DNA of 64,000 bases from Saccostrea cucullata (lineage: Eukaryota). Of this stretch, positions 10,501 to 64,000 are shown in pieces (the first letter of the stretch is position 1; every line of letters begins with the position of its first letter). Location: the NCBI RefSeq assembly GCF_032062105.1, contig NW_026926947.1, positions 62,001 to 126,000 on the forward strand. The letters are read 5' to 3'. The position numbers and the translations under genes are program-made. The notes under the pieces are model-generated. The model saw only the letters and a list, made by a program, of their open reading frames with translations. It was not told the DNA's origin and did no database searches.

Positions 10501-11437
10501 CTACAATATAAAATGTACAAGAAGAATGTCCAAAACTGAAAGAATTTCGAAGTATTGGTCTAGGTTATGTGGATAAATGTGAATTTCAGTTTGGATATCT
10601 CTGTGGTTAGACCATTATTATGGCATCTTTTCTATTCCTGTTACATTTGGTGCACTTATAATCCAGAGATTAATGAAAATCTTCATTATATTTACCAAAC
10701 TGTGAGCTAGGTACTAATGCATAGCTCATGGTTTGCCAGTTTGTACTTCTCTTTAGCTGTCTACAGTTTAGAGAAGTGGACAGGCTTTTGCCTACAATCG
10801 CCTGTAGGCAAAAGCCTTTCCACTTCTCTAAGGAGAATAAGCTTGTACAAATGAGTAATTTCATTTCTAATATTTATTATACACCAACATGTATAAATGT
10901 CTGATACAGTGATAACCTGTCAATTTCTCTTGAGATTAACACTTGTTACACTAGTTAGAATGATCTAACTGTGTCTCGATACAAGCCCGGGTCCGTAGGA
11001 CAATATCATTTTAACGATAGAACGTTCTATCTACGGTTACACAAATAATGACACAAAGTTGAACAGCATAGACATTGATAGAAATTAGAATCAGCGAAGG
11101 AGTTTCATACCATTTTTTTTTTATTTTACCTTTGCTGGAAACATGCTTGAGATATCTCTTTAGTAAATTTAGCTGTAAAGTCAGATATTTGTATTTTTCA
11201 CTATAATCATGATAATCACGGATTTTGAAAAAGTTGACTGTTGACGTTGTATTAATATTATGCACACCGAGCCCAGTCAATATTATCAATAATTTATTTG
11301 CAATATAAAACGGCTTCTTTTACGCTTAGTTTTTGTCAGTTTCAATGTGATGGCACATTTTTGGATGATGATGATAATACATTAGACCTACAAAAAAATT
11401 AAACAAATAAAAAGTATATTATCCGAGCCCGACTTTG

Positions 11438-12493
11438 ATGTGTAGCTCTTCAGTGTTTAAAGTTAGAAATGTCCTTGGGAATTACGACGCTATGAATGAA
11501 AAACAGCTCAATCGCATTCTCCAAGAAGGTGATATAAATGCTATTGAAAAAGAGCTAAAAAGTGGTCTGGATGTTGATTTTACTTTTCAAGAGTTGTATG
11601 CGAATAGTGACAATAATGGCTACGCCCTGCTTGACGTTGCAGTGGCTGCTCGACAAAAAGAAGTTGTCCAGTTTCTTGTGGACAGGGGTGCAAATGTCAA
11701 TAGAATGCGTAAATGGCCTGGGGCTACAAAGGAACTCATCCATTCCTTCTCTCTGCAGAACACATGTATGTATCCTTGTTTAGTCCGGGGAGACGTAGAA
11801 ATCGCAAATATCCTCGTGAAAGCAGGATTTGACGTGAATTTACAAGACATTCGACAGTGTTCTTCACTTTGGCACGCGGCGGATTCTGGAAATTGTAAAC
11901 TGGTAGACGTTATTTTAAGTTCACCCACTGTAAATGTCAATTTACCTGATATGACCTTTTTACACCCACTTCACGTGGCTGCTCTTCACGGACACAGTAA
12001 AATCATCACATCTCTTCTCAGAAAAGGAGCTAATGCTAACGCAATTCACGTGTTTGGAAATACTCCTCTTATCTTGGCCTGTAAGACCAATTGTTACGAG
12101 TCGGTACATCAGCTGCTTCTTTATGGAGCAGATGTAAATGCTGCAAACATCTATGGTGTGACACCACTATCTAAATTTTTGCACAATCCGTCAACACTTC
12201 AAGATTTACGAATATTTGACTTACTTTTAAAAGCGGGTGCTTTGGTCTTTGACTGCGAGTTAAAAGAATGGAAGCAGCAAGAAGATTTACAGATTTTCTC
12301 AGATTATCCACAGATTTATGAGACTCTAATTCTTATGTCATCTAGTCCTTCATCTTTGAAGACTCTAACGTGTAAATTCATTCGATTTAGAGTTTTGCAA
12401 TGTTTAAAAGATACACCAGGTGATATATTTTCAAAAATTGATCAATTGCAACTACCATCTATTCTTAAGAAAGAATTATTGCTAGAGTTTTGA
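11438..12493 (+). CDS. Ankyrin repeat and SOCS box (ASB-like) protein, single coding exon
   Basis: ~350-aa ORF with 6-7 ankyrin repeats (HPLHVAALHGH, GNTPLILAC, GADVNAAN.YGVTPL) and a C-terminal SOCS box (PSSLKTLTCKFIR...IDQLQLPSILKKEL). Start is ATG 11438 or 11492. Confidence 0.92.
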   Translation: MCSSSVFKVRNVLGNYDAMNEKQLNRILQEGDINAIEKELKSGLDVDFTFQELYANSDNNGYALLDVAVAARQKEVVQFLVDRGANVNRMRKWPGATKELIHSFSLQNTCMYPCLVRGDVEIANILVKAGFDVNLQDIRQCSSLWHAADSGNCKLVDVILSSPTVNVNLPDMTFLHPLHVAALHGHSKIITSLLRKGANANAIHVFGNTPLILACKTNCYESVHQLLLYGADVNAANIYGVTPLSKFLHNPSTLQDLRIFDLLLKAGALVFDCELKEWKQQEDLQIFSDYPQIYETLILMSSSPSSLKTLTCKFIRFRVLQCLKDTPGDIFSKIDQLQLPSILKKELLLEF

Positions 12494-19420: not shown

Positions 19421-21807
19421 TAACCCAGGGGTGAGGGGGGGTTGTCATAATCCATATGGACTCGTGAAGATTATCTATATTTAACTATTGGTTAAAATGA
19501 TTTAATTATAAAGCACTTTTAGAATGATGTCATTTAAATATTTATTCATACATGTATCATATGTATAGGACGGATAACTTTTCTTCAAAAACTGAAAACG
19601 TTCGTATATATAAACATCGTTTTACGATTAAAAAACTATTCGGGGGAGGGGTTGCTATGAAGGGGGGATTGCTATATATAGCAAGATTTCCCACGGAAGA
19701 CTAGCTATACCCCGGGGGAAGTCCAAGTGTATAGTCTTCCAAAGGAAGCATCACTATGTTTCACTTCAAAGGGAAATCTTACCATCTAGGACTTTCGAGG
19801 GAATGGCATGTACATATATCGGGTACATACCTGAACTAATAACAAACATCATTCATTTGAAAATTTAAGTTCGATCGATAAAGTATTAAGGCAAAAAATT
19901 GGAAAAAAACTCGAATAACCCCGGCCCGGTTTGCTTACCTAATTTTACCAACACTCTTAGCGAACACCCCTGCCACCTAGCGTTATAATGCGGCACTAAA
20001 TTAGGACAACTCGTATTCGTCTTCATTGAATATGCTTCATTGTTTGCGTGATTGAGTTAACGTTCGTAATAGAAATAATCATTTAAGATACTGTATCAAT
20101 TTAAAATAAAATAAAATGACTTAACAAGAATAAAGAAACATAGAAGTAAGGACGAAATGAAGAAGGATAAAAGTCAAAGTGAAATGTAATAAAGACGAAT
20201 ATGAAAACAATAAAGTGACATATAATTACAATAATAACAAAGCATAAAGAAGTAGGCAGAATAAGAATAAAAGCAAGATACATAGACTTTTGGCGGTAAT
20301 TCCCTTCCATAGCTTTCTAGGTGGGTCGATCTGGCTGGGGTTTTCCTCCGTCTTAGCTATATATATAAATCTTAATAGGACGAGGTTCATGGGATTTCTT
20401 CAAGTTATTCACTGTGGGTTATGCGATATTTAGATAATCTGAAACGGTCTACAATTTTGGTAAGTTTCCTTCTTTTTTGGTTTCTGTTCCTGTTGCTTGC
20501 TCCAGATTAAAGACTAGACAATATGTTATCTGACTTTTTAATATATTCGATCAATTCATACTATTAATGCAAGATATATTACTGTTTTTAGCGGCAGCTC
20601 ACACAAATTGGTCCGACCAAAATAGTTCCATCATGATTAAGTAGATACAACATTATTGTTCATGATAAGAGTAAAGTTGTGTATTTCATACGTTAAAGAA
20701 ATCAAAAATAACGTCAAAATATTATTAGAAAATCACTTTCCCCCCGAAATGCAAATAAAAAATATCAATATTCCTACGCTCGCTCCCTCCTCAGCCTTTT
20801 TTTTTTTTTTTTTTTACATGTTTGATAATAGAGAATATTTAGGTCATTCTTCGATTCATATGTTATATGTATGTTTACTCGCTTGGCAACATATAATAAT
20901 TCAAACAATACTCTTGACAAATAAATGACTTCGACTTCAAGCACGTTTTACTTCATTTTATTATCGGAACTCTCTAGTCTCAAAATTATACAACTCAAAT
21001 ATGCACGGTCAAATATCCGGATTGCTATGCAATGCCATGGTCAATAATACAACATCCCCCCACAAAAATAAAATTGTTCAATTTTATAAGAACCATGAGA
21101 TTGACAAAGCAGTCCGGGTATAACATACATATACAATGACCATAATGTATGTCCATATATCACAAAGCATATGTAAGTATTGTAGAATATGATAAATGAT
21201 ACAGTCACACACACCAAAGGTACACAAGATTCATGATCCTACAAGCTGAATTCAAGACTATTCTAGTAAAGTGATAACTCAGTCAAAACTAATATGACTT
21301 CAATGACATGAACAATACCTCTTTCAAGCATCAACCTATGCAAACAAAAGTCATCGATATGGTGTGAAACTCATACAACATAACTGAGCCCAAGTGACTA
21401 AAGTATACATTTACAGAATGTATATCATGATACAACTTACAAGTAATATTATGCCATTTCAGTGATAAATCCACAATAAAGCAGACCTCAAACAAAGTGG
21501 TCACATGTAAATGTATGCAAAAATATAAATATTATTGAAAATGTAAAAAAAAAATACATGAAAATAGGTATCTCCTGTAAAAAAAATTTGCAATAAAAAA
21601 GAAATTAATATCATCATCAAATAATATGCAACACATGTTATTAATTAATATGTTGACATCAACTGACCAATTTCAGGTGAATTACCATGTCATACTACAA
21701 TTCATTACATTCTCAAGACAAATGTAGTACATGTACAGTAATGCATCCACAGCAATTTCAAATACCAGTATATGAAAGAAACACAACTCAATTGTAGTAT
21801 ACAAAAA

Positions 21808-24800
21808 TTACTTTAACATTGGGGGAGGTTTTTGTTTGATTAATTCTTGTGTCTTAGTGTTCAAAGCATCCCAAGGTAACCACATAGAATTCTGAGCTGG
21901 TTCCCCAGAGAAATGCACTAGGAACTCCTTGGAATTACCCGATCCTCTTTGTCCTAGCACTCGCTTAACCTTGTAAAGTGTTCCAGTGTCCGACATTGAA
22001 CTAACTTCAACTGAAAGAGGATCTCGATGGTCAGAGTCTCTATAGCGAAGAGGCTTCTTACACATGCGGCGAGGTCGCACTTGTTCGGGTAACACAGGTA
22101 CCTTACGTTCACGCTTCCCTGAACCATCTTTATGTGTAGAGTTCATGTCCAGGATTCCTCCCTGAGAATTCTGGGTCAAAGGGTCATCACCGGGGGTATG
22201 TACCATGGGATTCTGGAGATCTGGTGTTTGGTTGGAATCCGGTTTGGTATGAGTGTCTGTCTGTGTCTGTTGATCAGTACAAGCAGGCGAGACTGTCGTG
22301 CGAGTTATAACCGGGCCAAGTAGATAGGGTTGTGGTGATGGTGCACGAACGTAAGCCATCTTTAATCTGTTCACATGAATGGGTTCACTAAAAACTTTCC
22401 CAGTGTTCTGATCTACTAGTAATACACGAGAGTCCGAGAAAACTTGATGCACTATATGAGGTCCAGAGAACTTGGCTTGAAGCTTCTGTGCAGGGCCTAC
22501 TGCAGGAATAGACAGGTAAACATAATCCCCTTTCACGAGGTGTAAAGGATGCGAGTTTTGGTTTGCTCTGGTAACCATAGTATCCTTATTAGCCTCAATG
22601 TTGTTCCGTACTTCTGTGCGGATTGTATGTAGTTTGTCAAGAAAAGCATCCATGTACTCCTGACTCCCCTTCGGTAAAGTATGAAGGTCAGAATTAAGGG
22701 TCACTGGTGACAGGGGAAACCGTGGTCTGTATCCAAGCACTATCTCAAATGGGGAATATCCTAGAGTAGAATTTATGCTCTGATTAATGGCAAACACAAT
22801 GGATGAGAGCTTCTCGTCCCAGTTTCGTCTCTGTTTGTCCATATATGGAGTAAGTCGTTCCTCTAGTGTTCTGTGCATTCTTTCACATGCACCGAGACAG
22901 TGGTGTGCAAAACTAGGCGTAAATTGTTGGGATATGCCTAGCATTCTACAAACTTCTGTTGTTACCTGTGCGGTAAATTCAGTCCCTTGATCACTGAGTA
23001 TGGTGTCGCATCCACCAAATGTAGTAAACAGCTGATACAAGGCAGATGACACAGTAATAGCGTCCTTAGCTGGGATGGGTACAGCAAACAAAAATTTGCT
23101 GAACATACAAGTAGCAGTAAATATGTATGTATTTCCCTTATAAGACACAGGTAGTGGTCCTTGTAGATCTATTTGCCACACATCAAAGGGTTTACCTGGA
23201 GTAGGAAAGGACACTATATTTGCCTTTGTCTTTGCTTGGGTCATTTTCCGACTTTGGCAAATATTGCAAGATTTCACAAAATCACTTATGATGGATGACA
23301 TCTTGGAAAAATAATAATGTTCTTTTATGCGATCTAGGGTGTCATTAATGCCACCATGAGCTCCCATAGGTGACTCGTGGTACAACTCTAGAACTGTTTT
23401 GATAAGAGCCTGTGGAACGACAAGTTGATAGTTGTTGAGGCCCTTGGTACGCTTTGCTTTGGCTATACGCGAGTGAAATAAAACACCATCGGTCACTAGA
23501 TAATCCGGGGCTTCTAGAAGAATTTTTCGAGCAGCTTTCTGTGAAAATGGTAGTTTGTCTTGCTGCAAATAATCTAGAATAAGTCTCAAATCAGGATCTG
23601 ATTTCTGTAACATGGCAATGCTGGACAGAGAAAGGTCTGTTTTGGTAAGTAGCTCGAGTGCACTATCCTGAACAGGTTTGTCTGGTATTCTGTCCGAGGT
23701 CTCATTCTCAATTACGGTATCAGCATTGTATCTGTCAGTCACACTATCGTCAAGTACAGTATCAGAGTTAACAAGGTCCTGGTATCCATGGTTACTATCA
23801 CTTGTAGAATCAGTATTCCTTGATTCCTGAATCACAGTGTCAGAATGAACATCACTAGCACTAATTTTGTGAACATGAGTAGGAGTGTCAGTAGCACTTA
23901 AATTATCATGAAGCACAGTGTCAGTATGATGGTCAGTAGAAGTGTCATTTTCACTTGTTTTATCATAAAGCACAGTGTCACTGTGATGGTCATTCGCACT
24001 TTTAGGATGATCAAGAGTACAAGTATCACTATCACCAAGTTTGTTGTCGCAGATCAAAGGTGCACAAACATTTGAGTGTCCATTAGTTTCACTTACAACA
24101 GTGTCAATATCACTTTTGTTGGTATTGTGAATAACAGTGTCACTATCACATGCACTCATTACATGGGCAACTTTGACTGGTTTTCCAAATGGTGATTTAG
24201 GAAATGGCTTTCCATTGGGATATTTCCTCCATGGTTGGAAATCCAGAGATTTCTTATGTGGTTTTGGAAATATATTTGCAGTTGGCTCATCGGTATCTGC
24301 ATCATATCCATTGTCCAGATGAGGTTTCGTGTCCAGTCTGAGATGATTAAGCTCCTTGTGACCAGTGTTGATCAGATGCGGAGTCAGGGGTTTCCCACAT
24401 GGAAAATGAATTTGTCCAGTTTCCTCTTTAATGTAGGGAAAGAAGAGATCTTCCTGGTCTGGACTGTCAAAACTGGTGTCACTGTTATCTGGTAAGTCAC
24501 GAGACAATGAATCAGGTACACACATTTCCTTCGCTGGCTTGTAAACAATATCAAAATTAAACTCCTGTAGAATGGCTAACCAGCGCTCATAAATGGCACC
24601 CTTGAGTTTCTTCTGGTACAGGGGTTTCAGAGCTTGATGGTCACATTCCACTATGAAATGGGTTCCTCTGATGTATGACGCACATTCCAAAACAGCGTAT
24701 GTCATTCCCAAGAGTTCCAACTTTGTTGGTCCATAAGAACGCTGCCATTTGGACAGTCCTTTGGAACCATAACGTACGACATGTGGAGTTTCCAAGTTAT

Positions 24801-34480: not shown

Positions 34481-37400
34481 ATGGCAACAGCAGTTAATGA
34501 TGTCAAAGATTCCGACGAATTCAGAGGAAATGTTTCTTTGTGGAGTAATGATGGCGATGTTAAAGGTACCAAGAAGAGGTATTTTTTAAGACGTACATTT
34601 CTGTCTTAACGATTAAATATTTCAAATCAAACATATAAATCTGTGTGAATATCTAATAAAAAAAAACTTTTATTTCAGTGGGAAAGTTGGAAAAACAAAG
34701 GTAGGATTTTCATGTGTTTATTTCTATTTGAGAGTATTTGAATTGTTACATTGTACTTGTGTTGTCAGTCATGCAATGTTAAGAAGGACGACCCTCAATG
34801 TAGGTAGAAACAGAGTAAACTATATATAGGAATTTTCTCTCAATAAACTTAACTTTTTTCCAAACTAAAATCGTAGACGTATGAATGTTTTACCCTGGTC
34901 TTGCAAAATATATCCCTTTGTTTTAAAACCACACCCACATTTTAACTGATTCTTTTAGGGAGATCAAAAAGTAATGTGCACAATATGTTCAGAGATTGGA
35001 GATGAGGCAGAGGCAATTATGGTGTGCAAGGAACCCGATTGCAACGAAAAGTTATGCATTGCATGTACTAAAAGACATCAAAAGCAAAGGGCAACAAAAG
35101 GACATGACGTAATCAAGTTAGAAGATGACGTTTCTGATGACGTTAGCGTCCTCTGTGAGCTCTGCGAAGATGAAGGTGTTCCTGGTTTTGGATATTGTAC
35201 AGATTGCGATGACCCGGAAGTTCTTTGCAACAAATGCTGCAAGCGTCACACAGCATCCAGAAAATTCCAAAATCACAGAATATCACAAGATCTAAAACTT
35301 CTTATAAGGACGTAAGACTGATTTATTGAAACGTTTTAGAAATGCTATGATAATATGAAAGCATCAATAAGCATGATTAAAAGAAGTGTTTTTAAAAACC
35401 TGAAAAAAGTCATTTTGTCTTTGTAGGCGTAAACAAATTCTAACTCTTTCACCGCAAGCAGCTGTAAATAACACTTGTAATCCAGCGAGATCCCACGTAG
35501 GAAATGGCATCCAGGCTAGAGCAGCAGTGCCAGAAATTTCATCTGGCTTTCAATGTGAACCTTGTCAGTTTGAAAATATGACGGTTTCTGCAACTCAGTT
35601 TTGTCTTGATTGTGCAGAACCAGAGCCAATGTGTACACCTTGTGCGCAACAACACCTGAGACAAAAAATTGGTCGAGGTCATAAGCTGTCAAAAGGTATG
35701 CTACAATTTCGGACCCGACAAGGAGCGATGTCTTCAAGACAAGAAATTAGGTATGTTGTGATGAAACAAATAGCAAACTAACTTTACTATCCATATCATC
35801 GACAATATTATCAAAATTAAATTATTTTTTTTTATCTGAAAAGCGGAACTGTTTTATCCAAAAGACAAGCTGAAAAACAGGATGACGTAAGTTAATATCT
35901 ACATTATAAATTGCGTTAAAAAGGTTATATAAAATCGGTGATTTTGATGTACTGATTCTTAATTTCATTTGAAAGTTGAGAGTACGCAACTGTCTTATCT
36001 CTTGTGAATGTTAAACATCAAAATTTTAAGTTTCTTTCCCGTTTTATACCGGTAACACAATCACAAAATGTTTTTGTACATTTGTATACAAAACGCACAG
36101 AAACAACTTCACATACAGATGATCTAAAACCTTTACTAATAACAATAATGTCTTGTTTTTTCAAATATTTTTAAGATGCCTGGTAAACCAATGCCCGATG
36201 CTGTAAAATCAGATTCTGTCAAACTGCACTGGCGGAGATGCGATGGAGTGGACAGCTATCAAATACGATATAAAAGTAAATCTGGAAAGGAAAACTGGAA
36301 AATAATCCAAACTGACGATAATAAAAATGAAATTACCCTAGAAGGTCTAATGGCTGATACAACATACATTTTCCAAGTCCGAGGAGTGAAAGGGGACATT
36401 GAAGGTTCATACAGCCAGGCTAATGACGAAATAAGAACACAGGCATCTCTAGCCTCTTATTTTCTGTCTTACTCAGTTCAGCTTAGCAAAGGGAATCCTT
36501 CCAAGTTTGAACTGCCATTTACTGAAAATTCTAGAGCAAGAAATCAGCACTACAAGATACGTCAAATATGCTTAGGTACTAGTAAACCACAAAATATTTT
36601 TTGTCTCAATAATTCTCGAATTTAATTTTTATAAATTTGCGTGTCATTAGAGAGTGTTAAACTTTCTTAAATATTTTTAATGAAGGTGACATGACAAACA
36701 GAGGAAATCGTGAAGTTGAGAAAACCATTATGTTAGTAGGATCCACTGGGTCAGGCAAGAGCACACTGGTGGATGGAATCGTTAACTATGTGATGGGTGT
36801 GAGCTTCGAAGATCCTTTCCGATTTACTCTTGTGAAACTAGAGGACGAAGAGCGACGCAAAACCGGAAATCAAGTAATTTTTTTTTATATTTAACAAAAA
36901 TATTAGGCTATATGATCAAAGTCCATTCAAGTTATATTTGCCACTAAAGATTAAAGATAAACTTTAATTTCTATTCAAAACCACTCTAATTTTATAGGCA
37001 GTTTCTCAGACAGAATGGATAACTGTTTATAAAATCTTTCCTCAAAGAGGAGGAAGACTGGACTATACCCTCAATATCATAGATACCCCTGGCTTTGGAG
37101 ACACTAGGGGACCAGAGAGAGACAACGCCATTGTTGACCAAGTCCGATATCTTTTCTCTGCAAAGGGAGAAGAAGGGGTCCTTTTCCTGGATTCTGTTTG
37201 TTTCATTGTGAAGGCACCCGATGCTCGCCTTACTCCTGTTCAGAAATACATATTCCATGCAATCATGTCCCTATTTGGAAAAGACATAGAATCAAACATT
37301 TGTACGTTGATAACTTTTGCTGATGGAGCAGACCCGCCTGTTTTGGCTTGTCTTAAAGAAGCCAATCTTCCTTTTGGAAATACATTTCAATTCAACAATT

Positions 37401-38410
37401 CAGCACTGTTTGCCCCAAACAAAAATCTTCAAAGCAGCTCTTTGTCCCCGTTTTTCTGGGAAATGGGCTGCAAAAGCTTCGAAGCTTTTTTCAGACATAT
37501 GAGGAGATTCGAGACAAGAAGCTTGTCACAGACACAAGATGTCTTGCATGAAAGAGAACAGTTGAAAACAATCATTTGCAGCATCAGACCCCAGATAACA
37601 GCAGGCTTATCAAAATTAAGCGAGTTAAGGGAACAGCTGGATCTATTCAACCGGCACAAAAATGATATTGAAAGCAATAAAGATTTTACCTATGAAGTGG
37701 AGGAGACTAGACAGATCCAGAAAGATTTGCCTAGAGGTCAGGCTGTTACCAACTGCCTACAGTGTAACGTGACCTGTCATGAAGACTGTCATATTAGAGA
37801 TGATGACCAGAAGAGGAAATGTTCTTCAATGACGGATGGCTATTGCAGAGTCTGCTTTGATCATTGCTACTGGGATCAACACAAAAACACCCCATACATA
37901 TTTTCATACGTAACCGAAACGGTTACTAAAACCTACCAAGAAATGAAAGATCGGTACGAGAAAGCAATCGGTGAAAAGCTAACGCATGAGAAGTATATAA
38001 AAGAATTGACGATGGACGTTGACGAGCTAATGGACAACATCATGGATATGATGAATGAGATGAATCGCTGTAAGACCAGACTGAGAGAGATCGCATTAAG
38101 GCCGGAGGCGCTTACTACAGTTGAGCACATAGATCTGATGATCCAAGCAGAAGAGTCGGAGAGACAGCCAGGGTATACAAAGAGGATCAATATGCTCCAA
38201 GAAATGAAGAGGATGGCATTGGTTGATAAGGATTTTCACGATTTGGATCAACATTTTCGCAGCACTCGTAGTGACATCACTAGTGCAGTTGGTAAAGAGT
38301 TTCGAGGAAGACGTAAAATCAAGACGCGTCGTCAGGTGAAGGGAAGAAATGAAGGCGTTGTAGCTCGAGGAATTAATATGGTGAAAAAGTGGTTTGGAGA
38401 AGTAGCCTGA
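34481..38410 (+). CDS. Tandem B-box zinc finger (x3) - fibronectin type III - septin/AIG1-like P-loop GTPase - coiled-coil protein, 946 aa
   Basis: join(34481-34578,34679-34700,34959-35311,35427-35750,35844-35886,36176-36575,36686-36873,36998-38410); all introns GT-AG and phase-consistent, 2841 nt. B-boxes Cx2C..Cx2-4C..Cx2C..H..H. FN3 PGKP..VKLHW..YQIRY..LEGL..T.YIFQVRG. G1 GSTGSGKS, G2 SQT, G3 DTPG, G4-like TFAD. Confidence 0.9.
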
Positions 38411-38799
38411 AGGTATCAGCCAATGCTGCTTACATCAATATAATCTGCATTTTATTCAATATACATGTATTATACTTTAGTTGCATATTATAAGAATTGC
38501 TATTAAATTTGTTGTGGTGTTATTTACATTAAAAAGTGAAGCGAAGTGATTCTCGTTGCAATGAAAATAATAAAGGTTCTAAAAGTATTGCTTTTAGACA
38601 CCCGAATTTTGTAATGGGAGGAAAGAGTTCTATAATGTTTCCTCTTTCACCATGATTATTGTCAAACTATTTTCATTTGTAAAGCAACACTCAAAAGGCT
38701 GGTTCATTCGGCGAACAAAAAAAAAAAACAAGGAAGTTTAGATGAAAAAAAAAGAAAACCAGAAGTTAAGCCGCAAGAGCTCTGGAACCTGCAATGTAT

Positions 38800-39153
38800 T
38801 GTAATGGTTTAGGCCGTGGACATCGGCCTGGATAGCTCAGTTAGTAGAAAACCTGACAGGAGATGCAGGGATCCCGGGTTCGATTCCCGGTCCAGCCATA
38901 CATTTTCATCTTTCCTGTAACAGATTTGGTGCCGTTGACCACCCCTGGAATTGCAGGTGAAAGTCCTGCCAGGGGCTAACAAGAACTTGGGTTATGTCTC
39001 CGAGGGCGGAGACCATTAAGGAGGGAGGAATGTAATGGTTTGGGCCGTGGATATCGACCTGGATAGCTCAGTTAAAAGAGCACCTGACTGGAGGTGCAGG
39101 GGTCCCGGGTTCGATTCCCGGTCCAGCCATACATTTTCTCCTTTCCTGTTACA
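38800..39153 (+). mobile_element. TRIM (miniature non-autonomous LTR retrotransposon) with tRNA-like sequence inside each LTR (Helenus-like)
   Basis: 123-bp LTRs TGTAA..T(T/A)ACA at 38800-38922 and 39031-39153; TSD GTAT; PBS TGGTGCCGT(T)GAC (38927, tRNA-His-like); PPT AAGGAGGGAGGAA (39018-39030). Each LTR has A box TAGCTCAGTT, B box GGTTCGATTCC and a T-arm. Confidence 0.92.
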
Positions 39154-39421
39154 GTATAATCTTCGAACCGTATATTAATATTTACATTTGCTGATGTCTT
39201 TCCTTATATAACAATGCTAATAAAATTGAAATTCAATTTTTAATGACATGCAGTTGGTCACATAATCAGACTTTCTTTAATATGAAAAACAAACTGCAGG
39301 AGCCATTTGGAAAGTTCCGATTGTGATGTCACATGACGTCGTAGATACGTTATGTTGCATTTCCAAAATAAAGTCTAACTAATGTTTCTTTGTCATACGA
39401 CTAAAACGTCAAATATGAATA

Positions 39422-39592
39422 TAAGAAATAAAATATCATTTTTAGAGTTTCATTGGGTACATGTATGAAATAAAGTCGGTATGTAATTAAATCTACTATA
39501 ACTCCCTTAATTCGGGCGTTATAGAATTTGATCACGTGACCGACTTCATGTCATACCCCAATGAAACTCTTAGAATAGTATTTTATTTCGTA
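39422..39592. mobile_element. Palindromic MITE-like element
   Basis: TAAGAAATAAAATA..TAGAGTTTCATTGGG / CCCAATGAAACTCT..TATTTTATTTCGTA. Confidence 0.7.
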
Positions 39593-39881
39593 AATAAATG
39601 GCCATATTAGTGAATAATTTAATTTTGTTTTTATTCTAGCCTCTCGTTGGTTAATATCCAAAAGGAACGCAAATTATTTCTGTATAACTATAAACTGGTT
39701 TGGTATGGGAACACGCTCCATTGACAACCGGATGAATCATCTTTACGCAATTCTCGCATTTCTTTCATTTCAAGTCCTCGGAATTCATGGAAAATTCTGT
39801 ACTATGGTTGTGTTATTGAACGGCAAATTTGAACTTATAAAGAGAAAAGCAATTTTACATCAATTGTTTTAAAATTAAATT

Positions 39882-49365: not shown

Positions 49366-49659
49366 GAAAATCTATTTGTAAATAGCGATGTATATGTTCC
49401 TGTTACTGTTTTAATAGTTAAAAATGGAGGTTGCTACTTCGCCGGATCCTTAAGTATTTCTAATTGAACATAGGAGAAATGTTCAGTTAGGCCAAGGGGA
49501 CGAAACAGATGTCTGTGGGAGGAACACTGATGACGAATATTTAATGGAAAATGAAAACCTTTTGGGCAGACATGGCAGTGACGATGACGACGAAATAATA
49601 CGTAGTTTCCGTCGGCGATCTGATTATCAGTTAGCTGACGACGCAATAGTGATCACACT

Positions 49660-50887
49660 TGCAGTTTGATCTGCCATTCACTGAAAATTTAAGGGCAAGA
49701 AATCAGCACTACAAGATACGTCAAATATGCTTGGGTAAACCACAGAACGTTTTTGTTAATAATTTTCGTATTTTGATCTACTGGCGTGTTCCTAGACAAT
49801 GTTTAATTTTATTGATTGTCAATGAATGTGACATTACAAATAGAGGAAATCGTGAAGTGGAGAAAAATACCATGTTAGTAGGATCTACCGGATCAGGTAA
49901 GACCACACTGGTGGATGGAATCGTATGTCATGTGATGGGTGTAAGCTTCGAAGATCCTTTCCGATTTACTCTTGTGAAACTCGAGGATGAAGAAGCACCT
50001 CTGTCCCCTTTTTTCTGGGAAATGGGCTGCAAAAGTTTCGAGGCATTCTACAGACATATGAGGAGATTCGAAACAAGAATCTTGTCACAAACACAAGATG
50101 TCTTGCATGAAAGAGAACAGTTGAAAACAATCATCTGCAGCATCGGATCCAAAAAAAGCGGGAACATTTGGATCTATTCAATCGGCACAAAAATGATACT
50201 GAAAGTAATAAGGATTTCACGTATGAAGAGGAGGAGACTAGACTGATCAAAAAAAAATTTGCCTAGCAGCCAGGCTGTTACCAACTGCCTACAGTGTAAC
50301 GTGACCTATCATGAAGACTGTCATATCAGAGATGATGATCAGAAGAGGAAATGCTCTTCAATGAAAGATGGCTATTGCAGAGTCTGCTTTGATCATTGTT
50401 ATTGGGATCAACACAAAAACACCCCATACATATTTTCATACGTAACCGAAACGGTTACTAAAACCTACCAAGAAATGAAAGATCGGTACGAGAAAGCAAT
50501 CGGTGAAAAGCTAACGCATGAGAAGTATATAAAAGAATTAACGATGGACGTTGACGAGCTAATGGACAACATCATGGATATGATGAATGAGATGAATCGC
50601 TGCAAGACCAGACTGAGAGAGATCGCATTACGACCTGAGGCACTCACTACAGTTGAGCACATAGATCTGATGATCCAAGCTGAAGAGTCGGAGAGACACC
50701 CGGGTTATACAATTAAAGATTTTGATCAACATTTTCGCAGCAGTCGGAGTGATATTACTAGCGCAGTCGGCGCAAGTTTCGAGGAAGGCGTAAAATTAAG
50801 ACGTGTCGTCCGGTAAAGGGAAGAAATGAAGGCGTTGTAGCTCACGGAATTAATATGGTGTAAAAGTGGATTGGAGAAGTAGCCTGA
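49660..50887 (+). pseudogene. Paralogue 2, 3' half: GTPase/coiled-coil pseudogene
   Basis: Near-identical to 36503-38410 but lacks FN3. A deletion at ~49995 removes G2-G4 (..EDEE|APLSPFFW). Frameshifts near 50150-50260, a ~50-bp deletion at ~50712, and a late frameshift/stop. Confidence 0.88.
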
Positions 50888-62038: not shown

Positions 62039-64000
62039 TGTTATGGGTCAGAATTACCCGAAATGCCAGCAAAGATCAATAACACAGTTTAAACCTAACA
62101 ATAATTTATTTACAGTAATATATAATAAATATATCAAACATAAAGTACAAACTTAGCAAGAATCTAAAAATACATACATCAGAGTGTCCGTTGCTGCACA
62201 CAATGTCCCAGTGAAAATATATCCCATTTATATCTAAATAGTGCTTATACGACAAAGTATTGTATTTGCATCGAATTGACAGGGTATTTATATAGTATCA
62301 TAAATCTAGAAAATTCTAGAAATTATTAAAACATGTTATTACTGGAACAATCTGGACATACACAAAATTTAAGAATGTTCTAGATCAAATGACCGAACAT
62401 GTTGACCACGCTGGAATTTTCAAGAAACTTAATGTTACTAATTATATACATAATGAAACAATACACATCTCACAACACCTCCCCCCTTAAAAAGTTTGAA
62501 TGTCAATGAAAAACTTAAGTTGTAAAACATGTACATTAATACAAAATCTAGTATGTTTACGATACTCTTGACAAGGCGTCTGCAATAACATTGTCTTTGC
62601 CTTTGATATGCTTAACTGTTATGTTGTATTCTTGTAACAACAAACTCCATCTAGTCAGTCTTTGATTCTTGTTTGACAATTTGTGCAAAAATGTCAGGGG
62701 GTTGTGATCTGTATATACAAGAATTGGATGCAAAGTAACATTCAGATAAACATCAAAATGCTGTAAGGCTAACAACAAAGCAAGGCATTCCTTTTCATTG
62801 GTGGAATACTTTTGTTGAAATTTTTTATGTTTATTTGAAAAATAAGAAACAACTCTATCTACCTTATCACTATGTTCTTGAAACAAAGCTGCCCCGATTC
62901 CAACATCACTAGCATCAACAGTAAGCTTAAATTGCTTAGAAAAATCTGGAGTTGACAGAACTGGGTTGCTCATAAGGACAGATTTGATTTTATGAAAGGA
63001 TTTTTCACAGCCCTTTGTCCATTTAAAGTTAACCCTCTTTTGTAAAAGATTTGTAAATGGACTAATAACTGAGGAAAATATTGGACAAAATTTTCTGTAA
63101 AACCCAGCCATGCCCAAAAACCTCATTAATTCTTTCTTGTTTGTAGGAATCGGGAACTTTGCAATAGCTTCCACTTTAGCCATAATGGGTGTAACATAAC
63201 CTTGACCTACTTTATGACCTAAATACTCTACATAAGCATGACAAAATTCGCTCTTCTCAAGATTCACAGTTAAGTTTGCTTTAGCTAAAATGTCAAATAA
63301 AGCACGCATGATTCGGAGATGTTCGTCCCATGTGTTGCTGTATATGACGACATCATCAATGTAGGCCTCGCATCCCTCAAGGTCTTGAAGAAGGGAGTGA
63401 ACCATCCTTTGGAATGTAGCCGGTGCGTTTTTCATGCCAAAAGGCATTACTTTATACTGGTAAAGTCCATCTGGTGTTGCAAAAGCAGATATTTCTTTTG
63501 CTCTTTCTGTTAACGGTACTTGCCAGTAGCCTTTCAATAGGTCAAATTTACTGACAAATTTCGCGTTTCCAATGTTGTCAATGCAGTCATCGATTCTAGG
63601 TATTGGATATGAATCAGTTTTGGTAACAGAATTCACCTTTCTAAAGTCTGTACATAATCGGTAGGTACCGTCCTGTTTTGGTATAAGAATACACGGTGAC
63701 CTCCAATCACTTTTACTAGATTCAACAATGTCATTGTCCAACATGTACTGCACTTCCCTTCTTAGGTACTGCAATTTTATTGGATTCAGACGGTACGGAT
63801 GTTGTTTGATAGGCAGAACGTCACTCACTATGACATCATGACAAGCTGCATTAGTTTTCTTTGGAACATCCGAAAAGATTTGATGATACTCATTCATCAA
63901 GTTTTTAACTTGTTCTTTTTGGTGAATGTTCAAATGTCCAAGTTTGGCATCAAAATCAGCCAAAATTTCCTATTTCTGGCATTTTTGTCATACCACATTT
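62039..64000 (-). mobile_element. 3' end of a Gypsy LTR retrotransposon (Gmr1-like domain order)
   Basis: TG..CA LTR 62039-62477; PPT AAGGGGGGAGG abutting 62478; RT-RNase H ORF stops ~80 bp before the LTR. Confidence 0.85.
62557..63963 (-). CDS. pol: Reverse transcriptase-RNase H (C-terminal part of Pol)
   Basis: HPYR, CTDFRKVN, FDLLKGYWQ, MPFGMKNAPATFQ, YIDD, VDASDVGIG, DHNPL, IADALSR*. Confidence 0.93.
   Translation of the reverse strand: MADFDAKLGHLNIHQKEQVKNLMNEYHQIFSDVPKKTNAACHDVIVSDVLPIKQHPYRLNPIKLQYLRREVQYMLDNDIVESSKSDWRSPCILIPKQDGTYRLCTDFRKVNSVTKTDSYPIPRIDDCIDNIGNAKFVSKFDLLKGYWQVPLTERAKEISAFATPDGLYQYKVMPFGMKNAPATFQRMVHSLLQDLEGCEAYIDDVVIYSNTWDEHLRIMRALFDILAKANLTVNLEKSEFCHAYVEYLGHKVGQGYVTPIMAKVEAIAKFPIPTNKKELMRFLGMAGFYRKFCPIFSSVISPFTNLLQKRVNFKWTKGCEKSFHKIKSVLMSNPVLSTPDFSKQFKLTVDASDVGIGAALFQEHSDKVDRVVSYFSNKHKKFQQKYSTNEKECLALLLALQHFDVYLNVTLHPILVYTDHNPLTFLHKLSNKNQRLTRWSLLLQEYNITVKHIKGKDNVIADALSRVS

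Follow-up and report, generated by a model that had tools for sequence, protein, structure and literature searches.

A decayed Helenus-2 copy in Saccostrea cucullata and a Gypsy family that likely moves Helenus elements

A 354-nt sequence in the genome of Saccostrea cucullata carries two short long terminal repeats (LTRs), each built around a tRNA-like part, and raises the questions of whether the element is new, what transcribes it and what moves it. It lies in a window of 64,000 nucleotides, the whole stretch of DNA that was analysed. The reading reached here, with a probability of about 0.85, is that the sequence is a decayed copy of the published family Helenus-2_SaGl, and that this family is likely transcribed by RNA polymerase III (Pol III) from the boxes in its 5′ LTR, primed by tRNA-His and likely moved by one Gypsy family.

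A first-pass annotation of this DNA had proposed a complete LTR element flanked by target-site duplications (TSDs), and the coordinates bear this out. In the window sequence, the TSD GTAT stands at 38796–38799 and again at 39154–39157. Between the two copies lie, on the forward strand, a 5′ LTR of 123 nt (38800–38922; sequence and repeat comparison), an interior of 108 nt and a 3′ LTR of 123 nt (39031–39153), both LTRs running from TG to CA. The interior contains a primer-binding site (PBS; 38927–38941) that is complementary, with one bulge, to tRNA-His at its 3′ end as given by a tRNA-His gene of the genome, and a polypurine tract (PPT; 39018–39030). Fold prediction places a stem-bulge-stem at 38942–38975 and a hairpin ahead of the PPT at 38996–39013.

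The tRNA-like regions of both LTRs exceed the Rfam tRNA (RF00005) gathering score of 29, with 30.7 bits at 38826–38898 and 38.2 bits at 39057–39129, and the T-arm motif is matched twice in the window against 0.01 expected. As the annotation had it, the B box is intact in both LTRs (38877–38887 in the 5′ LTR), and TTTT follows the tRNA-like part at 38903–38906, where it is a candidate leaky Pol III terminator, and at 39134–39137; by eye, TTTT is absent from some published bivalve LTRs (PMC10886601). Sister copies keep the A-box GG, but both LTRs of the window copy have it altered: one G is lost in the 5′ LTR (about 38833–38844), and GG reads AA in the 3′ LTR. A tRNA-Lys likeness of the LTR, as put forward in the annotation, is given in the Fig. 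2d legend of PMC10886601. No 5S rRNA match was obtained in the element at E up to 1, a tRNA match being found instead.

The LTR appears to contain a tRNA-derived promoter rather than a working decoding tRNA gene, because the anticodon loop is 8 nt long and yields no anticodon that could be assigned. ARAGORN called only the 3′ LTR of the window copy (tRNA-???, with a four-letter anticodon without assignment), and all nine LTRs that it called have the 8-nt loop and an unassignable anticodon. The acceptor stem is weak in the Rfam match and a cloverleaf-like fold was predicted for just one of three LTRs folded; the 7-nt readable anticodon loop and full acceptor stem of a functional tRNA gene are both missing. 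It is accordingly very improbable that the LTRs supply the host with a working tRNA or a regulatory tRNA-derived small RNA, even with an Rfam score above threshold and seven bivalve families that could encode tRNA-Thr (PMC10886601). Helenus-2_SaGl does not figure in the available rows of the tRNA-Thr alignment in the supplement to that paper, its four supplement mentions being elsewhere. The hundreds of tRNA-like sequences seeded by the Helenus-2 family can mislead tRNA annotation.

The annotation had also recognised a TRIM of the Helenus kind and supposed that its family might not be known. The first point agrees with the LTRs, tRNA-like part, PBS, PPT and 4-bp TSD; the second fails, the family having been published in 2024 with the same lengths and sequence. 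Kojima 2024 describes Helenus (TRIMp3), and Table S1 of that paper (PMC10886601) gives Helenus-2_SaGl, from the oyster Saccostrea glomerata, an LTR of 123, an interior of 108, a total of 354 and a TSD of 4 bp. Its PBS corresponds to tRNA-His, with the same bulge as in the window copy, and Fig. S2C supports the tRNA-His assignment. Two sister sequences from S. cucullata, the first LTR of locus L017 and the interior of L009, match the published sequence letter for letter by eye. The window LTRs differ from that first LTR at 13 and 8 of 123 sites, and the window interior differs from that of L009 by four substitutions and two one-base gaps, which places the window copy some 6–11% from its Helenus-2_SaGl sister sequences. 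Given the Table S1 lengths, the by-eye identity of sister copies with the published sequence and these computed distances, the element can be assigned to Helenus-2_SaGl, a family already known rather than new.

Other features agree with this placement. The element has two short LTRs, a non-coding interior and a length within the overall Helenus range of 311–1263 bp; its LTRs hold tRNA-derived sequence with an A box (TRGCY..YGG, the GG being changed here) and a B box (GGTTC); and it has a PBS complementary to a tRNA 3′ end, a PPT and the 4-bp TSD of animal Helenus. It lacks the 5S rRNA-derived LTR of Cassandra and Ajax. Helenus-1_SaGl, Helenus-5_SaGl and Helenus-2/2B/2C_CGi share a related tRNA-like LTR core, the same PPT and, with changed letters, the same two interior stems, but differ from the window element in the 5′ part of the LTR; the Helenus-5 primer, unlike that of the window element, is tRNA-Ile (PMC10886601).

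The window copy itself seems to be an ageing one. Its LTRs differ from each other at 13 of 123 sites, eight of the mismatches being transitions, and it is comparatively old since the outer LTRs of most other copies among 30 fetched loci differ at only 0–6 sites. With LTRs this far apart and both A boxes damaged, it is likely past its active life and probably no longer a source of new insertions.

A search of the S. cucullata genome itself (1.17 Gb) returned 1,933 candidates, and the 40 that were scored include many full-length matches at 91–94%. Exact motifs gave at least 347 LTR starts and at least 213 interiors, against 0 for reversed-pattern controls; both counts are lower bounds, and haplotype duplicates may inflate both. 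Among the 30 fetched loci, an exact 4-bp TSD is present in 17 of 27 clusters, the window copy included, and one with a single mismatch in four more, at a chance of 0.0056 per site; the TSD sequences vary widely among clusters. Loci L011, L023, L024 and L025, which overlap L010, L016 and L018, were left out of this count.

The many copies with distinct 4-bp TSDs also settle a concern raised with the first-pass annotation, that a local duplication of a tRNA-SINE head might mimic an LTR element. The tRNA-like sequence taken alone would fit such an origin, as tRNA-derived SINEs (SINE2) have a tRNA-like head with A and B boxes. However, SINE2 elements lack LTRs, PBS and PPT and are moved by LINEs (PMC10886601), and in place of a single head and a LINE-type tail the window element has two LTRs, a PBS, a PPT and a fixed 4-bp TSD. 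Full-length copies number in the dozens, lie on other contigs and have differing TSDs, which refutes a local duplication; the probability of such an origin is negligible.

Tandem arrays of three to five LTRs are common among the fetched loci. In L005, L016, L017 and L027 the outer LTRs are identical despite differing inner ones, which would fit arrays copied as a single cDNA. In the main text of PMC10886601, tandem arrays are mentioned for the zebrafish family only. Helenus-1-, -4- and -5-type elements also occur in the S. cucullata genome. Single insertions can combine LTRs and interiors of Helenus-1 with those of Helenus-2 (L005, L007, L017, L019, L030, L068 and L074, the first five of them arrays); some of these are bounded by one TSD, and the mixing points to shared particles.

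Cassandra, a plant TRIM with 5S RNA LTRs, resembles Helenus in having a small-RNA Pol III promoter in both LTRs and a non-coding interior, and it likewise forms tandem arrays, for which template switching has been proposed (PMC7215508). Its promoter is of 5S and not tRNA origin, and its transcription has been validated; according to PMC10886601, no autonomous partner is indicated for it. The bivalve TRIM biv-TRIM also has inverted repeats in its interior, but is without a canonical PBS, and a partner was not found (PMC6934838). In sugar beet, TRIM families are known to form chimeras with one another (PMC13570524).

The annotation had further named stems in the interior and taken them as a possible packaging signal. 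The predicted structure of the interior does contain these stems, but the window interior has no folding advantage over shuffled sequence (z −0.39; 70 of 200 shuffles as good), and Helenus-2 interiors alone gave z −0.39 and −1.21, again without an advantage. Across families, a Helenus-1-type interior takes the same stem-bulge-stem fold with other letters, and the stem of the pre-PPT hairpin is kept with different letters in Helenus-1, -2, -4 and -5 copies. In the window copy this hairpin has a C-G pair against U-A in most copies, a double change that keeps the pair. By eye, several published families from scallops, pen shells and oysters have this hairpin as well (PMC10886601); the main text of that paper contains neither ‘hairpin’ nor ‘packag’ (as packaging). 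To give the interior stems or the RNA structure a part in packaging would be speculation.

Larger-scale pairing is predicted for an RNA of ~312 nt. The segment ahead of the tRNA-like part, taken as U3 (38800–38825 in the 5′ LTR), would pair together with the PPT onto U5 and the 3′ half of the tRNA-like part of the 5′ LTR, in a fold with z −2.5 (1 of 100 shuffles as good) and a mean pairing probability of 0.61–0.84 in five elements. The U3 duplex beats shuffles in six of six LTRs (0–16 of 1000), against 447 of 1000 for a Gypsy control. Cross-family U3 pairs are equally good for Helenus-1, -2 and -5 and family-specific only for Helenus-4, the one family in which pairing beyond the T-arm is significant. 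The duplex may be a working structure or the relic of an inverted duplication. That it prevents the genome RNA from folding, and being cleaved, as a pre-tRNA is a speculative and rather doubtful idea.

Priming by tRNA-His, as claimed in the annotation, is supported both by the PBS and by copied primer sequence. The window PBS pairs with S. cucullata tRNA-His over 14 nt with one bulge, and a perfect 18-nt complement of tRNA-His occurs at 170 sites in the genome. At 34 loci the complement follows an LTR-type end; in 25 of the 30 of these that were read it comes after a Helenus LTR, continuing into a Helenus interior (20, with varied junctions), a Gypsy interior (three) or an inverted Helenus LTR (two). 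Continuous tRNA-His complement reaches 33 nt in L118, 38 nt in L107 and 39 nt in L187, longer than any PBS template. In these three Helenus-2 loci the stretches are best explained by copying of the primer itself beyond its usual stop, and thus lend direct support to a tRNA-His primer; versions of 18–19 nt could also have come from the Gypsy's own PBS.

Two further observations concern His-primed loci. In L184 and L187, at around position 1500, a perfect or extended tRNA-His primer site is followed by an inverted Helenus-2 LTR, like a fold-back product of reverse transcription. L117 (1500–1535) holds another His-primed Gypsy family, whose primer site likewise carries tRNA-His complement over 34 nt.

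One His-primed Gypsy family, with LTRs of 1,224 nt, is the candidate helper. It carries a gag-type open reading frame of ~446 aa and a PR-RT-RH-IN frame of ~1,308 aa, open in some and broken in others of the seven copies read. With the window copy it has in common the His PBS, 14 of 15 PPT letters (the two PPTs being one letter apart) and 12 of the first 13 LTR letters, and no other similarity of note was found between this Gypsy and Helenus-2. None of four motif patterns for the Helenus interior stems was found within the helper, which rules out the Helenus interior as a plain deletion product of it.

Mobilisation in trans by a Gypsy, another of the annotation's claims, draws genomic support from Helenus elements fused to this family. 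Ten distinct fused loci were found, three of them on two contigs each and counted once, and in six (L107, L165, L167, L232, L233 and L105) one TSD spans the whole fusion. L107 comprises a Gypsy LTR, 38 nt of tRNA-His, a Helenus-2 interior and two Helenus-2 LTRs, within TSD CAAT. L233 (TSD CATA) begins with a Helenus-2 LTR and interior and a partial Helenus-1 LTR that passes into the final 330 nt of a Gypsy LTR, and goes on into a near-whole Gypsy interior and 3′ LTR; both loci thus have unlike ends, one Gypsy and one Helenus-2. In L232 (TSD ATTG) the two ends carry identical hybrid LTRs of 897 nt, each of which runs from Gypsy position 1 to ~805 and then from Helenus-2 position 30–33 to 123. 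In L165 (also on a second contig) and L167, Gypsy coding pieces lie between Helenus ends, with TSDs TTAT and CATT, and L105 is a Helenus-1 element with only a ~27-nt patch of Gypsy LTR tip (TSD GTTC). No TSD was found around the fusions L166/L169 and L083/L086, while L113, at a contig start, and L077 are counted as fusions outside the TSD tally. L021 was rejected, its Gypsy LTR pieces being adjacent with no join at PBS or LTR.

By established retroelement biology, a single TSD enclosing unlike ends, or a hybrid LTR copied to the two ends, would be expected when co-packaged RNAs undergo template switching and the product integrates once. Both arrangements are observed, and the fusions point to template switching and single integration. 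The fusions might instead have arisen at the level of DNA, by recombination or gene conversion at the primer site and PPT that the two elements have in common, with Helenus moved by several His-primed Gypsy families or by a different one. At least ten His-primed element types besides the helper occur among 30 loci read, several fusion junctions fall at the shared PBS or PPT, and a 2026 sugar-beet paper suggests that non-autonomous elements use whatever machinery is at hand (PMC13570524). Separate insertions, however, would not give one TSD around the unlike ends of L107 and L233, nor recombination the identical hybrid LTR at both ends of L232, and the L107 junction contains 38 nt of tRNA-His itself.

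The choice of partner also appears selective. A Helenus LTR precedes 5 of 27 interior starts of the helper Gypsy (three distinct loci), and the 17 Helenus interiors with a perfect PBS follow a Helenus LTR in 14 cases, a helper LTR in three and any other LTR in none. The PBS-adjacent sequence of 15 other His-primed loci was not matched in any of 72 Helenus loci, which form an overlapping set. These searches, which used exact patterns, are not exhaustive and may miss other helpers, revealed no fusion to a different His-primed family. Recombination or a wider set of Gypsy partners is therefore judged unlikely, and movement by the one family is preferred.

Some other Gypsy sequences were noted beside this family. 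L176, L180 and L186 represent a further His-primed family; by eye its LTR end and leader look like those of the helper, with no BLAST match at E 1e-3, and it is a possible second helper. L111 (94–1320), a helper copy, has its own PPT ahead of the 5′ LTR, which suggests Gypsy copies arrayed in tandem or nested. The window's own Gypsy (20861–28500, reverse strand) was rejected as the helper, having a different PBS, which is not tRNA-His, a different PPT and 194-nt LTRs. It is full length, with LTRs 99% alike, TSD TATG, a gag frame of 364 aa with a zinc knuckle and a pol frame of 1,791 aa in which a long low-complexity stretch separates RNase H from integrase.

Transcription of Helenus-2 by Pol III, from the boxes of the tRNA-like part, is likely. 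Among 63 LTR copies, five sites are polymorphic; none lies inside the B box or the A-box GG, and that at position 43 occupies a spacer site of the A box that is variable. Both boxes are also kept across bivalve Helenus families (PMC10886601), and the hybrid LTR of L232 switches within 3–6 nt of the tRNA-like start, although this is one event. These observations argue against the tRNA-like part being a passenger whose boxes do little, with Helenus RNA made by Pol II read-through from nearby genes, arrays or a Gypsy LTR. The passenger explanation can draw on the damaged A boxes of the window copy and on PMC10886601, where likewise no Pol III transcript is presented. It can also draw on three oligo-dT RNA runs, apparently from a relative ~4% different in the neighbouring gene, in which Helenus reads occur in poly(A) RNA and 80–88% of them run on into unlike sequence. 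On balance it is improbable, and Pol III remains the preferred polymerase.

In the same three runs, whose library type says little about Pol III ends, Helenus reads lie in both orientations equally and show no pile-up of starts or ends. The helper Gypsy drew few reads along its interior (bins with depth 28, 30 and 11 of 30) and more along its LTR, and they gave no reliable RNA start or end for that family.

The stop of a fibronectin-III and P-loop gene, at 38410, precedes the start of the element by 390 nt, close to the ~400 bp that the annotation had given from a GTPase stop. Read depth is zero at 38584–38731, between the 3′ end of this gene and the element, giving no sign that the element belongs to its mRNA, and neither RNA depth nor position provides evidence of a functional link. 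The gene (36149–38410, forward strand) is multi-exon, with fibronectin-III and P-loop parts, an exon containing GSTGSGKS and a weak AIG1 match (E 0.003, below the cut-off), and after these a region that is rich in cysteine and helical. Its paralogue 13 kb downstream (49653–50816, forward strand) is deleted and interrupted; it has no common downstream flank, and no empty site was found in the window.

Directly after the element, 39243–39595 holds nested inverted repeats, probably another short, MITE-like repeat, near which many RNA reads end loosely (39176–39213 and 39570). Rfam miRNA matches at 39448–39566 were rejected as far under threshold and reflecting a DNA palindrome. Elsewhere in the window are a second LTR retrotransposon frame, reverse-transcriptase/RNase H-like by translation only (62557–63969, reverse strand), and an ankyrin-repeat protein with a weak C-terminal SOCS-box match (11411–12493, forward strand).

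A life cycle can be proposed from these elements. Pol III would start near LTR position 27, read through the first TTTT and stop at the second, producing an RNA of about 310 nt in which R is the tRNA-like part, U5 the last ~15 nt and U3 the first 26 nt. In the predicted structure, U3 and the PPT pair back on U5 and the 3′ half of the 5′ tRNA-like part to form a rod with two conserved hairpins. The RNA would enter a Gypsy particle, reverse transcription would be primed by tRNA-His, and template switching there would give rise to tandem arrays and fusions; packaging, copying and insertion would be carried out by proteins of one Gypsy family of the same genome, with 1.2-kb LTRs. It is reasonably probable that this one family shares particles with Helenus-1 and -2 and that its integrase accepts their ends, although they have just the primer site, PPT and LTR tips in common, with the hybrid LTR marking the Helenus RNA start near the tRNA-like +1. 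That U3 pairing would guard the genome RNA from pre-tRNA folding and cutting is the speculative, less probable step.

The window element is itself ordinary, a single copy of a family published in 2024, and the value of following it up lies in the helper and primer evidence elsewhere in the genome, hardly in this copy. PMC10886601 infers a Gypsy helper from PBS likeness only, and how the dependence of a TRIM on its autonomous partner is kept is, according to that paper, not known; the fusions bear on this question. No paper naming a Helenus partner from fusions was found, in searches mostly outside subscription journals and Repbase reports, and the fusion evidence is apparently not yet in print. 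TSD-bounded fusions offer a way to name TRIM partners from genome sequence alone, and they suggest that hitch-hiking needs no more than a primer site, a PPT and LTR tips, perhaps together with RNA structure. Helenus and its candidate helper Gypsy thereby become a defined pair for study.
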